DNA of 64,000 nt from Eledone cirrhosa. Lineage: Eukaryota. A model generated the notes under the pieces. That model was given only the letters and a program-made list of their open reading frames with translations, was not told where the DNA came from and did no database searches. Shown in pieces: positions 490-55,945 of this stretch (the first letter of the stretch is position 1; every line of letters begins with the position of its first letter). The DNA lies in the NCBI GenBank assembly GCA_964016885.1, contig OZ024743.1, positions 123,194,001 to 123,258,000 of the forward strand, read 5' to 3'. Made by a program: the position numbers and the translations under genes.

Positions 490-1110
490 TATATATATAT
501 ATATATATATATATAATAATACTATTTATAGTTATGTATATAGTATAAACAACCTTAAGCAGGAAGGTCAGTTATATCTTAATTACCTTATTACCAGTAA
601 GAGAAATAGCTCAATGTATGAACCTCAGTTGTTTTACAGAGCAGTTAAATAAATAAATTATACAATTATCAAAGTTGTGTTCCAATCATTTAATAGCTGA
701 CAATCGTTTCTTCCAAACTCTCGTTTGGGGTCATCGGATCATTATCAATGTTTGCACATATAATTACCCTCCTATCCAACTGAACAATAATATAGATACA
801 TGTAAATTGATGTTGTGAGAAACAGTTTCGTATTTACAGGGTGGAATGGATGTGACATACATTTTACGAGAATTGTACAATAATTGTACAAAAATTCAAG
901 TTCAAATTCAAATCAAAATTCAAATTAAAATCAAAATCAAAAGCACGGGGTGGAATACATGCAACAGTTAAAACAAGGAAATAGTCCAAATATTAAAGAG
1001 GCATTGAGGAAGCAGTTTTGAGAAAGGAAGAGTGCGATAACAAATCATATGCAGGCGTGTGGATAGTGTGACTGCGTAAGTCATATACATGAGAAGGAGA
1101 CAAGCAAAGC
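490..1110 (-). mobile_element. Penelope-like pLTR cassette between (TA)n tracts, carrying a hammerhead motif
   Basis: TA-flanked; 490-700 recurs reverse-complemented at 7255-7430 and 9773-9950; hammerhead motif at 694-741. Confidence 0.6.
694..741 (-). ncRNA. Type I hammerhead ribozyme motif (degenerate)
   Basis: Minus strand reads CCGATGA-ccccaaa cgagag tttggaa-GAAA-cgattg-TC-agct; stem II CCAAA/TTTGG; near-palindromic stem III. Confidence 0.6.
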
Positions 1111-1249
1111 TATTATGCATATATATATGCATATATATGCATATCTATATATGCATATATATATATATATGTATGAATGTGTATATATATATATATATAT
1201 ATATATATATATATATATATATATATATATATATATATATATATATATT

Positions 1250-1366
1250 ATGTCTGAAGAAGTGACAACTGATTATACATTTGCTATCGAATACTTGCTA
1301 ACATTATATGATTACGCAAGCAGCGATACATAGGTATTCCGTCTGTTACAGAAACATATGTCAATA
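1250..1366 (+). ncRNA. Hammerhead motif with ~90-nt stem II
   Basis: CTGAAGA (1254) agtgaca...tgttaca GAAA (1351) CATATG TC, followed by AATAAA; TA-flanked; stem I weak. Confidence 0.55.
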
Positions 1367-1439
1367 CCTAATAAATTCCTTTTAAAAAAAAGCACTTTCA
1401 TTTTATATTCATCTTTTCTATATATATATATATTCACAC

Positions 1440-1925
1440 ACATATTTGTTGTGAAAGAGTCATTTCTCAATCTTGGCGCAAAACCAATTTTTTATCCACA
1501 TGACCTTTACCGACCAATCAAAATTGTTTTGACCAATAATTTTTGCTGGAGCCACTTTTTTAACATTTTAACATAAAAACAGTCTTGGCGCAAAATCAAC
1601 TTTTTACATTCACATGACCTCTACCGACCAATCAAAATTGTTTTGACCACAAGCATTTTTGCAACACAAAAATAACGCTGGAGCCACTTTTTTAACATAA
1701 AACCAGGTAGAATTCCCAAAACTAATCAGATCAGAGCAAACAGCACGGACACTCTATCTCAAAATTAGTTTTGAAAAGCATTTAGAAATGCGCAACCGGT
1801 AAAAACTTAAAACTTAAAACCACAACTGAATACTAACCCATACAATCACTAATACTCTTTTATTCCTAATTAAACCATTTTTCAACTGTGAACAATTTGT
1901 CAGCATTTTCTATTCCGTTTACCAA
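1440..1925 (+). mobile_element. TA-flanked PLE-like cassette with internal ~120-bp direct repeat and variant hammerhead (1767-1807)
   Basis: TTGAAAA-gcatt taga aatgc-GCAA-ccgg-TA-aaaact; 3' part nearly identical to the arms of the 33751-34144 palindrome. Confidence 0.6.
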
Positions 1926-1944
1926 TATATATATATATATATAT

Positions 1945-2145
1945 ATGAAAAGAAATCAACGCCGATGGCTGAGCACCGGCCGTTTCGACAGCTAAATCCG
2001 CACTCATTTCGGATCTAGCTGGTGAAACGGCCGGAGCTCAGCCGTCGTGGTCCTGAATCATTTCATATTAATCACTCTACTACCCCAAGTATCGATTACT
2101 CTGGTGGGCTATGGTCCACCTCGTATTCTACCACACCTTTTCCGA
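1945..2145 (+). mobile_element. Hammerhead family A cassette, fold-back copy (divergent subfamily)
   Basis: Inverted ...tttcgacagctaaatccg / cggatctagctggtgaaacggcc... followed by the family tail; TA flanks. Confidence 0.7.
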
Positions 2146-2224
2146 TATATATATATACATGTATGATTGCATACTCTCGAGGAAGTCGTAGGAGCACCGC
2201 ATTGACATACGATGTTACTAGGGC

Positions 2225-2440
2225 ATATAATAAAACCTGACAGAGCCCATCTTTATGTGTGAATACAGCAGATTTCTTCCAGAGATGGATACAGAGTGAG
2301 AGAATAGAAGTGAGGAAGCGATATAAAGGAAGAATTGACCCCAGGAAAAGTTGACCCAGGCGGGATTTGAACTCAGAGAGCCGAAACAAATATCCACAAA
2401 GCATTCTATCCGACATTCTAAAGAGTCAGCCAATTCGCCG
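2225..2440 (-). mobile_element. Degenerate tRNA-derived SINE
   Basis: ggcgggatttgaactcaga B-box reverse complement; similar to the full copy at 43270. Confidence 0.6.
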
Positions 2441-2494
2441 CGTCTCTCTCTGTATATATCTATATATACAAATATTTTAGAGATATGCATGTGT

Positions 2495-2780
2495 GAAGGC
2501 GCGTGGCTTAAAGAGGAAAGTGTTGGTTTTAAATTCGTGAGATTGGGAGTTCAATTTGCGGTGAGGCATTGAACCCTATTTAAGTCAACTCAACCGGCAA
2601 AAATTAGGTGTACCTCAAAGGGCCGGTCGTTTTATACTTTGTTTCCTGCACAATCTCCCTGACAAGTACGTTACGGGTGTAGGTTTTTGTGGAATGCTTA
2701 TACACTAGAACGTTAATTTCGTTAGCGAGCTGTTCTGTGATCGGAGAATAGATCTCTCATACTCGGAATCGATGGATCTT
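2495..2780 (+). mobile_element. tRNA-derived SINE, second family (degenerate)
   Basis: ggcgcgtggctta...gagttcaat head; body related to 16830-17140 and 31955-32250. Confidence 0.6.
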
Positions 2781-2845
2781 CCCTATATATATATATATAT
2801 ATATATATGCTTTTATTTGTTTTCACTGCATGCCCGTATATGGAC

Positions 2846-53283: not shown

Positions 53284-53482
53284 TGTATGTATGTATGTAT
53301 GTATGTATGTATGTATGTATGTATGTATGTATGTATGTATGTATGTATGTATGTATGTATGTATGTATGCATGCATATATGTATGTATGCATGTATGTAT
53401 TTATGTATGTATGTAGGAATGTATGTATATATATATATATACCGACCCAACCGCCCCTCAATCCATCTTATTTCTCATTCTT

Positions 53483-53518
53483 TCTTATGATGAAGGACTA
53501 GCGTCCGAAATGTTAAGA
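53483..53518 (+). ncRNA. Degenerate minimal hammerhead (47263 family)
   Basis: tctt-ATGATGA-aggac tagc gtcc-GAAA-tgtt-aaga. Confidence 0.6.
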
Positions 53519-53951
53519 CCCTCTTCCTGCTATATCAAGCATTAATCTAATATATCCCTACTGTACCGATTGTCTTGTTATTTCTGTGTACCTTTTACAT
53601 ATATATATATTGTTTAGTAGTGGATTACTTACTTGTTCTGGGATGTTTGCCGTGTATATGTATTTTTTCTCGCGAGTCAGTTCTCTCGTTGCTACGGTCC
53701 CCGCGGCTGAATTAACGGTCGCTATCTTCAATTTGCAAAGCCCTTTAGACGGTATGTTATTACTCTAAGGTGTTATACCTTATTGAGTGCTTGACTGCAC
53801 TTCTGATTACATTCGTCGGCTTAGCTGCAACACGAGCTTCGAATATGCTGTACTTCCATTTGTATATATATATATATATATATATATATATATATATATA
53901 TATATATATATATAGAGAGAGAGAGAGAGAGAGAGAGAGAGGGAGAGAGAG

Positions 53952-54310
53952 AAAGATGAAATCGAAAATGCAACTGGAGTATTATTTTAAAAAATATATA
54001 TATATTTATTTGGTTCCTCTACCGGTTTCGCAGTTCTTCTGCTTTTCAAAAGTAGAGTTGAGATGGAGGGCCTGTGGTTTGTCTCACATCTCACATCTCA
54101 GATGTGAGAAAAACCACAGACCCTCCATCTCAACTCTACTTTTGAAAAGCAGAAGAACTGCGAAACCGGTAAAGGAACCAAATAAATATATATATTTTTT
54201 TAAATAAGACTCCAGTTGCATTTTCGATTTCATCTTTTTTTCTTTATACTTTCACTCGTGTAGGACACCTCGGTTATTTTTCATTTTGTAAAAAAAACCT
54301 CACTTTCTAA
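53952..54310 (+). mobile_element. Fold-back cassette (arms 53952-54091 and 54100-54236) with U3:A8 hammerheads
   Basis: ctt-TTGAAAA-gcag aagaa ctgc-GAAA-ccgg-TA-aag at 54138-54175; mirror copy at 54016-54053. Confidence 0.85.
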
Positions 54311-54760
54311 TATATATATATATACGTGTGTGTGTGTTTATGTATATATGTGTATATATGTTTACATAAATATATATAAATTTATATATATATATAGACA
54401 CATATATATATATGTATATTAATACTCACACACTCACACACACATACTCATTCATGTATATATATATATATATAAAGAGAGAGAGAGAGAGAGAGAGAGA
54501 GAAATAGTTACATCAGTTTAGATATGCATGTGTGTGTGAGAGAGAAAGTGTGAGACTGTGTGTGTGTGTGTGTCAACAAAATGGTTAACACAAGAAGTGT
54601 GGCTAGAATTTGAAATATATGCGTCCCAATGCGAATCACCATTCTAATATCGATAATAATCGAATAGTTGAGAAAATTGTGTACATTTCATATATATATA
54701 TATATTTATATATATATATATAAATATATATATATATATAGAGAGAGAGAGAGAGAGAGA

Positions 54761-54943
54761 GACCCCGACGGCAGAGACAAGCCGTTTCGACGGCTATTTC
54801 TGCCCCCAAAATAGCCGTCAAAACGGCTTGAGCTCTGCCGTCGGGGTCTTAAACATTTTCCTATTACCCACTCTACTGTCCTAAGTATTGAGTAATCTGG
54901 TGCGTTATGGTCCACCTGGTTCCTTACCGCACTTCCTTCGTTA
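54761..54943 (+). mobile_element. Hammerhead family A fold-back copy
   Basis: Turn at gacggctattt-ctgccccca-aaatagccgtc. Confidence 0.85.
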
Positions 54944-55017
54944 TATATATATATATATATATATATATATATATATATATATAAGAGAGATATATTTTCA
55001 CTTTAATTATATCTCAT

Positions 55018-55121
55018 AAAATAATTGTTTCTACTTTAGGCACAAGGCCAGCAATTACCCAGTGCATTACTGGTACTTTATTTCATCGATCCCGTAAGGA
55101 TGAAAGGCAAAGTCAACCTCG
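55018..55121 (-). mobile_element. Partial tRNA-SINE
   Basis: 3' half of the 43270 family. Confidence 0.8.
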
Positions 55122-55480
55122 AAAATAATACAACTGGCTTTTCCACATAATACATATTGTTAGCACCCCAAACACTTAAATTGGGTTTATATTAAAATAT
55201 AACCTAATGTTTGTTGAGTGAGATGGTTACCAGTTAGAGATTAGCTTTAAACTATCTCTGTTATTGTATTAATATTTATATATATATATATATATATATA
55301 TATATATATATATATATATATATATATATATATATATATATATATATATATTGGAATTGGTGCTCTGAAATATATATATGTATGTATATGTATATATATT
55401 TTTTTTCAACAAAAATAATCCATTTCTTCCGCTTCTCATTCTCTTCTCTCATTATATTTCTTCTTTTACTTTTCATTCCA

Positions 55481-55516
55481 TCTTCTGATGAATGACTAGC
55501 ATCCGAAACGTTAAGA
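55481..55516 (+). ncRNA. Minimal hammerhead (47263 family)
   Basis: tctt-CTGATGA-atgactagcatcc-GAAA-c-GTT-aaga. Confidence 0.65.
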
Positions 55517-55774
55517 CTAAGACTCATTTCCTACTACATCAAGCGTTTAACTAATATATATTCATTATACCGTATTGTTTACTGTATTGTTTCCCCTTTG
55601 CTTTTCGCATATCCCGCCCTCTCTGTCTCTCTCTCTCTCTCTCTCTCTATATATATATATATATATATATAAAGGGTCGTGCCCCAGCATGGCCTCAGCC
55701 GGATGGCTGGAACAGGCAAAAGAGTAAAAGAATACACACACACACACACATTTATATGTATGTATATATATATA

Positions 55775-55945
55775 TTTAATATAGAAATGGCTTCTACAGG
55801 ACTAGAAGTGTTTCATTGGGGAGAAATCATCAGGGCTTCCTGATGATTTCTCCCGAATGAAACAGTTCTAGTCCTGTGGAAGCCATTTCTATATTAAATA
55901 TTTATACCCTGCTGTGTATTGAACACCTTAATTACTGTGGTTACC
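55775..55945 (+). mobile_element. Fold-back cassette with hammerhead cores on both strands
   Basis: ...tttcattggggagaaatcatcagg-gctt-cCTGATGAtttctcccgaatGAAAcag... Confidence 0.75.

Follow-up and report, generated by a model that had tools for sequence, protein, structure and literature searches.

Hammerhead motifs between (TA)n tracts of the Eledone cirrhosa genome and their relation to Penelope-like elements

A 64,000-nucleotide stretch of the Eledone cirrhosa genome (contig OZ024743.1, positions 123,194,001 to 123,258,000; hereafter the window) contains short cassettes lying between TA tracts, and a first-pass annotation recognised type I hammerhead ribozyme motifs in these cassettes at about 23 loci. 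This raises the question of what the cassettes are and how they came to lie in (TA)n. We conclude, with a probability of about 0.88, that they are the pseudo-long terminal repeat (pLTR) 3′ ends of endonuclease-bearing Penelope-like elements (PLEs), accompanied by a few derivatives without open reading frame (ORF), and that they were inserted into (TA)n by the mechanism proposed below.

Hammerhead motifs in the window and conservation of their fold

Both strands were searched with our own type I descriptor, which comprises the core, GAAA, NUH and three scored helices. A first, stricter descriptor gave only 5 matches, after which the criteria were relaxed. At a score of at least 16, the window (34% GC; 159 TA tracts of at least 6 units) yielded 17 matches, versus a mean of 0.28 (maximum 2) in 100 local dinucleotide shuffles and none in the reversed sequence. 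The strict CUGANGA core alone gave 12 matches versus 0.15 in shuffles. The motif call thus withstood the shuffled-sequence control proposed with the first-pass annotation, and CUGANGA and GAAA cores, an NUH site and three helices in type I order were all found.

The count of loci stood in part. Loci are designated here, as in that annotation, by the low end of each motif, within about 10 nt. The window copy passes with a score of at least 16.7 at 13 of the 23 loci (1250, with a stem I of just 1 bp, 4600, 6989, 7965, 9551, 10595, 21328, 37250, 38992, 43039, 43745, 45918 and 54138), is weak at five (694, 2846, 15463, 47263 and 55481; score 12.4-15.4) and has a broken or variant core at the remaining five. 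Three of these last are decayed copies of intact families: GAAA has become CAAA at 49991 (the core is intact elsewhere in its family), C3 is lost at 53483, and the cleavage triplet and stem I are damaged at 55838. At 1767 and 33985 GCAA replaces GAAA, as it does in 33/33 copies of their family. Seven of the named motifs are on the minus strand (694, 7965, 21328, 37250, 43039, 45918 and 49991). The loci fall into 18 families, in agreement with an earlier estimate of 15-18, and 6989 and 9551 constitute one local duplication. Remnants had been undercounted, since 74 pieces in the window match a library made from these families; a few of these are library contamination, and many are half-ribozymes in palindromes. 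Rfam reported no hammerhead at its gathering score, nor did one appear in the top 150 of its 467 matches at E≤10. A match at 336 (C3-A8) had no full match elsewhere in 1.7 Mb and was not placed in a family.

To follow the fold beyond single copies, 515 matches in 1.79 Mb of fetched DNA (targeted plus evenly spread) were grouped into 70 clusters, of which 35 recur at more than one locus. The search admitted the four combinations at positions 3 and 8 on equal terms, and the 3-8 pair was kept in 35/35 of these multi-locus families (29 C3-G8, 6 U3-A8, none mismatched) versus mismatches in 83/188 shuffled matches. A palindromic helix III was present in 24/35 families versus 8/188 shuffled matches, and AATAAA occurred within 40 nt in 10/35 versus 13/188. 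Stem covariation among genomic copies was also found. The alignment of the 4600/6989 superfamily, from which two short rows were excluded, has 43 rows, 42 of them distinct. In it, 93% of the stem cells are paired and 13 of 20 pairs vary on both sides; covariation reaches a score of 0.413, versus 0.224 shuffled and at most 0.143 slid. These figures lean towards structure, because the shuffle takes no account of relatedness and the descriptor itself was used to choose the rows. Of the 40 distinct stems, 38 retain a C-C mismatch at position four of stem II. Compensatory changes are thus seen in the stems of the one superfamily tested and at the 3-8 pair.

Coding elements, tails and inverted pairs

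Walking upstream in other copies showed that 14 of the 23 loci (11 of the 18 families) are the 3′ ends of coding PLEs, in which an ORF with reverse transcriptase (RT) and C-terminal GIY-YIG domains, in most cases broken, lies upstream of the pLTR. The PLE origin suggested by the first-pass annotation is confirmed by this extension, whereas its description of a mostly non-coding PLE/retrozyme population is not supported in that form: only three loci are ORF-less units. Seven of the 11 coding families are Hydra-type, three are Neptune-type and one is without clade call. Endonucleases with Hydra motifs were linked to 694, 1250, 2846, 4600, 21328 and 45918; on its sequence the 55838 family is likely Hydra-type as well, being linked through sister subfamilies with a microsatellite-rich untranslated region (UTR). 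A Neptune-type endonuclease was linked to 47263/53483/55481, and DNA downstream of GIY-YIG ORFs matched the segments starting at 1434, 33709, 53953, 7850 and 63938 (Table 1) at 77-98%. Loci fetched from elsewhere in the genome carry L numbers. The endonuclease lies ~500 nt upstream in L107 (1250 family), at 624-1040 with the hammerhead at 2200 in L285 (family B, that of 2846 and the most abundant in the window), and is separated from the hammerhead by a 2.1-kb UTR in L280 (4600 family). The U4C core at 694 is family-wide, and stem I is mutated in its window copy.

The Hydra motifs found (DKT, RW[KR], LYRDD, CxCx5C and CxxC..E..N..CxH) agree with the description of that clade (Craig et al. 2021, PMC8557442; here and below, statements on published work apply to portions of the cited sources). 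They are distributed over L264, L265, L187, L337 and L349, with RW[KR] in L187 only. The Neptune features GxKF/Y, DKG, a CX2-5CxxC linker and CCHH, the latter read by eye, were found in L061, L063 and L064; the 47263 family was seen by its endonuclease alone. L061 encodes a 938-amino acid ORF with Neptune motifs and, like L071, has RT and GIY-YIG Pfam matches. Copies of the coding families are heavily 5′-truncated. Thus, family B has 16-17 tip copies per 590 kb, and a piece ~500-800 nt upstream gave only 143 first-look candidates. Loose genome-wide counts were 10,596 first-look GIY-YIG candidates and 63,398 for a Hydra-type endonuclease query.

Table 1. Hammerhead-bearing cassettes and related pieces in the window (strand "." where both orientations are present or none was assigned).
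Position	Strand	Feature	Details
516-1118	-	Hydra-type PLE 3′ end with tail (516-644)	core CCGAUGA at 737
7255-7457, 9773-9975, 10255-10397, 11866-12007		further 3′ pieces of 694 family	
1249-1418	+	Hydra-type PLE 3′ end, truncated at core	90-nt stem II, weak stem I; L107
1434-1924	+	Neptune-type PLE 3′ end	variant core UUGAAAA...GCAA (U3-A8, A13C)
1947-2144	.	family B inverted palindrome	ribozyme 3′ half only
2809-2957	+	Hydra-type family B, tail-less copy	U3-A8 core at 2854
4012-4193, 5578-5749, 12169-12295, 15592-15770, 15993-16181, 25662-25883, 39372-39517, 50714-50896, 54763-54941		more family B pieces	
4314-4706	+	Hydra-type 3′ end; one inverted, tailed arm and one tail-less arm	intact hammerhead 4607
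6874-7161	+	no coding partner found; architecture of 4600 family	hammerhead at 6994, conserved stem II C-C mismatch; duplicate 9436-9723
7850-8046	-	RT + GIY-YIG PLE 3′ end (L071, 93% identical)	minimal hammerhead at 7998; no clade call
10478-10738	+	inverted tail (10478-10575) joined to tail-less 3′ end	hammerhead 10598
12375-12619	.	inverted 3′ end of further coding PLE family	outside first-pass annotation
15413-15565	+	no coding partner found	minimal hammerhead at 15467, stem I lost; family also 43692-43866 (core 43748, 2-bp stem I)
21293-21538	-	Hydra-type 3′ end, inverted pair	intact hammerhead at 21392
33709-34142	.	Neptune-type GCAA family, inverted pair	one tailed arm
34216-34764	.	Hydra-type inverted pair (L103)	ribozyme 3′ half only; outside first-pass annotation
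37081-37591	-	ORF-less 320-bp unit in partial tandem, with an inverted arm	U3-A8 hammerhead at 37290
38960-39347	+	part of ORF-less 550-bp tandem unit	hammerhead at 38999, long stem III
42913-43505	-	young ORF-less family, 1.28-kb unit	copies 98-99% alike; hammerhead 43107
45745-46780	-	Hydra-type PLE 3′ UTR with tail	hammerhead at 45959; L329-L340; upper boundary by eye
47222-47403	+	Neptune-type PLE 3′ end (by endonuclease motifs; L082, L126)	minimal hammerhead at 47267
49946-50392	-	old family (77-85% identity), inverted pair	stem II of 100 nt; window copy has a broken GAAA
53454-53598, 55420-55600		decayed relatives of 47263 family	
53953-54309	.	Neptune-type PLE pLTR, inverted pair (L061)	U3-A8 hammerheads 54142 (+), 54049 (-)
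55776-55965	.	inverted pair, one tailed arm	damaged hammerheads; further piece 21172-21266
62654	+	relative of 12375-12619 family	intact hammerhead
63938-64000	-	another Neptune-type PLE family	3′ tip cut by window end

Two 3′ ends, one with and one without a tail, 35-200 nt apart and both on (TA)n, were found in most of the 16 families profiled. Inverted pairs are frequent among the insertions; both of their 3′ ends point outward, and exactly one arm is tailed in 57 of the 62 pairs that were classified (eight families, duplicates removed, 7 further pairs being unclassifiable; p=1.5e-12 versus 0.5). Family 54138 was excluded from this count because its internal TA run confuses the tail call; with this family, and when duplicates were retained, the count was 58/70. 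In tailed copies of families B, 4600, 54138, 1767 and 45918 TAT or TATA comes after the position of the tail-less end, and in family 21328 that end lies inside TATAT. The proposed association with (TA)n was clear, 146 of 444 (TA)n clusters adjoining a recognised 3′ end versus ~2% by chance. Moreover, 58 of the 77 local inverted repeats detected in 570 kb touch TA. In the palindromic cassettes the arms are PLE 3′ ends, and the centres differ from copy to copy. An optional tail, inverted 5′-truncated copies and partial tandems, as expected of PLEs, were all observed.

Of 361 alignment starts, only 9 lay 3 nt or less from the cleavage site, and this position did not stand out from the bins around it; subfamily breaks blur this result, family 45918 is uninformative and family 34600 is unscored. 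The lack of a peak indicates that inserted copies likely derive from uncleaved RNA, as in vitro. The idea that 5′ ends lie at the cleavage site was rejected: the pieces at 7255 and 9773 do begin 2 nt from it, but both belong to a single duplication, and a peak across families is lacking.

We propose the following mode of insertion. The GIY-YIG domain of the element would nick (TA)n on both strands, one nick priming reverse transcription at the end of the tail and the other at an internal site, where the start would likely be aided by a 3-7-nt TA match. Two short complementary DNAs joining at their truncation points would produce a palindrome, and one alone a solo tip. The template would likely be uncleaved RNA. 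Any action of the ribozymes would be on tandem transcripts, in dimeric form or with the assistance of protein. Solo and half copies would mostly be inert debris, and ORF-less units would likely be carried in trans by the same PLE enzymes.

Several points weigh against this interpretation. The clades were called from motifs, and the Hydra-type protein of L264 had no Pfam match. The ORF links of 1250 and 4600 come from one locus each, and that of 55838 passes through sister subfamilies across TA-rich sequence; no coding partner was found for 6989, 9551, 10595, 15463, 43745 and 49991 (four families). The TA match is indistinct in 55838, which has a T-rich continuation, and in 37250, is not scorable in families 6989, 62654 and 34600, and differs from the non-homologous start observed in vitro (PMC11167929); tail-less ends could instead arise by later deletion between the internal TA and the flank. 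The disregard of relatedness in the covariation shuffle counts here as well. Finally, the ribozymes are predicted from sequence, and the hammerhead monomer was never the minimum-energy fold (18 loci, then 6 loci). This agrees with the dimer or protein-assisted mode reported for PLE hammerheads (PMC4209133; PMC11167929), but is no sign of activity.

ORF-less units and competing explanations

The explanation that fares best after this one, and which we consider unlikely, is a swarm of retrozymes: ORF-less units would be transcribed, cut by their hammerheads to monomers, circularised and reinserted. It draws on the three window families 37250, 38992 and 43039, which have ORF-less direct periods of 320, 550 and 1,280 bp and in which no PLE protein match and no stop-free frame of more than 97 codons was found. 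In the 38992 family 8 of 19 other copies repeat the 3′ end 550 bp upstream; the inverted arm of the 43039 cassette is interrupted by an unrelated short repeat (43271-43462). A short direct period was detected in 8 of the 35 families in at least two copies, and in six more families in one copy. A homogeneous array in L132 (G000:C22:12000001-12010000), with at least 19 tandem 468-bp units that each contain a hammerhead and with dispersed relatives of 410-430-bp period, is from its sequence the best retrozyme candidate seen, and comparable units yield circular RNA in mussel, coral and axolotl (PMC7229834). A retrozyme of 150-450-bp ORF-less tandem units, each with a hammerhead, fits the 320-bp partial tandem and nearly the L132 array, but the 550- and 1,280-bp units exceed that range and the 14 ORF-linked loci do not fit. 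The ORF-less units, moreover, share the tail and inversion pattern of PLE tips, and copies in general span the cleavage site, with the few starts near it noted above. A retrozyme cycle is not supported as the origin of the population. A further hammerhead family, outside the window (L265, L316 and L351), shows a 310-bp direct period in most copies tested.

The cassette at 10478-10738 was at one stage taken for a fixed-length monomer resembling a short interspersed element (SINE), as 29 other copies seemed to share both ends. This was rejected; its first 95 nt are an inverted tail, because joints to the opposite strand and two direct copies (L135, L323) were found. It had no cover in the contigs of 1/4 runs, which is not proof of absence.

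That the host keeps the ribozymes as RNA-processing or regulatory elements is highly improbable in our view. Their high density, and AATAAA near the cut in 10/35 families, could be read in this way. Against it, covariation is seen between subfamilies, while individual copies degenerate (the motif is weak or broken at 10 of the 23 named loci, and half-cores are many), and density follows TA content (Spearman 0.66). Least credible of all, and refuted for the named families, are two further readings, TA-targeting DNA transposons (miniature inverted-repeat transposable elements) and fortuitous matches in DNA rich in AT and hairpins, for although many cassettes are TA-flanked palindromes, L114 gave 12 matches in an apparent AT-rich satellite, and window singletons off TA tracts (27567, 57911, 58855 and 61807) resemble chance, the shuffled and reversed controls, ORF links, covariation, variable palindrome centres and PLE 3′-end arms all speak against them.

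The window contains several other repeats. TA-flanked palindromes or cassettes outside the hammerhead families (11174-11283, 21920-22132, 38327-38504 and 5236-5531/7532-7819) are probably tails or halves of further PLE families. A TA-flanked inverted family at 32346-32435 and 33431-33543 (18 copies in 1.7 Mb) can be read, by eye only, as a CAGANGA (U4A) hammerhead. The 6989/9551 cassettes belong to a local 1.2-kb duplication of 97% identity (5965-7161 and 8530-9723), which includes part of another repeat family (also present at 26540-27790, 42464-42874 and 46810-47186). The short repeat at 43271-43462 is very abundant (~105 copies per 590 kb; also 14049-14235, 18145-18272, 36061-36238, 51771-51985, 55016-55121 and 60907-61278), and we take it to be SINE-like. 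A broken non-LTR retrotransposon occupies 27900-31700 (+), with an RVT_1 match at 29282-30172 and a C-terminal segment that presumably resembles a restriction-like endonuclease of the R4/Dong type. Decayed retrotransposon coding fragments at 44060-45050, 19890-20238 and 49105-49443 are, we assume, RTE-like and L1/Tx1-like. ARAGORN called a tRNA-Ser(GGA) at 13249-13321 (-; Rfam 49.7 bits) in a TA-flanked segment with ~6 partial matches per 590 kb, and this may be a mobile tRNA-derived repeat.

Genome-wide scale and comparison with known systems

Hammerhead density was estimated from 59 evenly spread 10-kb regions (0.02% of the 3.0-Gb genome), and totals are extrapolated from these. The regions contained 106 matches at a score of at least 18 versus 7.4 in shuffles. 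When L114 (a likely satellite artefact) and L132 (a tandem array) were dropped and only cores with a paired 3-8 were counted, 71 matches remained in 57 regions, or 1.25 per 10 kb (bootstrap 0.91-1.60). This extrapolates to ~370,000 hammerhead motifs genome-wide (270,000-480,000), of which ~20,000 are likely background according to the shuffles; the genome thus likely holds several hundred thousand. The 13 matches in the window (2.0 per 10 kb) are in line with its higher TA content, which density follows as noted above. The idea of a local swarm, or hotspot, was accordingly rejected: the window is ordinary for its genome, and it is the genome that is unusually rich in hammerhead motifs. A TA tract was present at most 300 nt downstream of 93% of the sampled matches versus 35% of random positions (all regions), and PLE tips make up no less than 5% of the DNA sampled (30.6/570 kb).

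We suggest only tentatively, and think it rather doubtful, that this is the most ribozyme-dense genome yet described, with dozens of hammerhead families stemming from (TA)n-targeting PLEs, two-strand priming and a TA-guided second start. If so, PLE insertion would have given rise to at least a third of the (TA)n clusters, along with a short inverted repeat every 7 kb. The inverted repeats would form a large source of double-stranded RNA for adenosine-to-inosine editing, the 310-550-bp ORF-less units would give abundant circular RNAs, and families with the fixed core changes A13C and U4C would offer a natural test of whether PLEs depend on cleavage.

The cassettes are a known kind of element, notable for their scale and for the clues they offer on insertion. 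A cephalopod relative has been described: Hydra-1_Obim of Octopus bimaculoides is a Hydra-clade PLE with (TA)n preference and a hammerhead (PMC8557442). The Hydra-type families described here share with that clade the C-terminal GIY-YIG, the CxCx5C linker, CxxC/CxH around E and N, DKT, RW[KR], the hammerhead near the 3′ end and the preference for (TA)n. They differ in number, one Octopus family appearing among the supplement rows listed versus seven named window families and one more here, and have 3′ UTRs of 0.5-2.1 kb and U3-A8 and U4C cores. Similarly, the Neptune-type families have the GxKF, DKG and CX2-5CxxC linker (L061), microsatellite bias, pLTR, tail and inverted 5′-truncated copies of their clade, but contain U3-A8 cores and one abundant family in which GCAA is fixed.

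Minimal hammerheads of metazoan PLEs are of type I, comprise many families per genome and occur mostly as solo truncated copies (Cervera and de la Peña 2014, PMC4209133). The short palindromic helix III, the U3-A8 variant and opposite-strand pairs 100-700 bp apart are common to both sets, whereas stem II regions reach 100 nt here. That study reports thousands of motifs (9,000 in Xenopus tropicalis) versus the 270,000-480,000 estimated here with a different, relaxed descriptor. The estimate is also ~3 times the 120,000 retrozyme copies of axolotl (PMC7229834), the largest figure compared, although the methods differ. Animal non-LTR retrozymes (PMC7229834; bioRxiv 10.64898/2026.07.22.740005) are likewise PLE-derived, ORF-less tandem type I units of 300-550 bp, but units of this kind are a minority here, known from DNA and mostly present as dispersed partial tandems with PLE tails and inversions. 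A hammerhead census in a cephalopod was not found in the literature searched, and neither were the scale, the family diversity and the TA-matched second end; that search did not extend to most papers behind subscription, to Repbase or to the repeat library deposited for octopus, where the families reported here may be described. PLE tips may also figure in the 893 'unclassified SINE' families annotated as recently active in Octopus vulgaris (PMC13282606).

The closest parallel to the proposed insertion mechanism is PAc, a Poseidon element of Anolis, whose protein cuts and extends both strands in vitro; two internal reverse-transcription starts bound the tail, and hammerhead cleavage is not required (Frangieh et al. 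2024, PMC11167929). The mode of insertion proposed here shares these features: two starts that define the tail, cutting of both strands and insertion without cleavage. PAc starts without target homology, whereas in the present families the second end mostly coincides with TAT or TATA. The PLE tail is known to be optional (PMC8557442) and often present at one end only, to which the 57/62 pairs give a number. Dozens of parallel families, some with fixed core changes, make it possible to test what the hammerhead does in PLEs. The one-tail rule and the TA match provide genomic support for the mechanism observed in vitro, together with a testable refinement of it.

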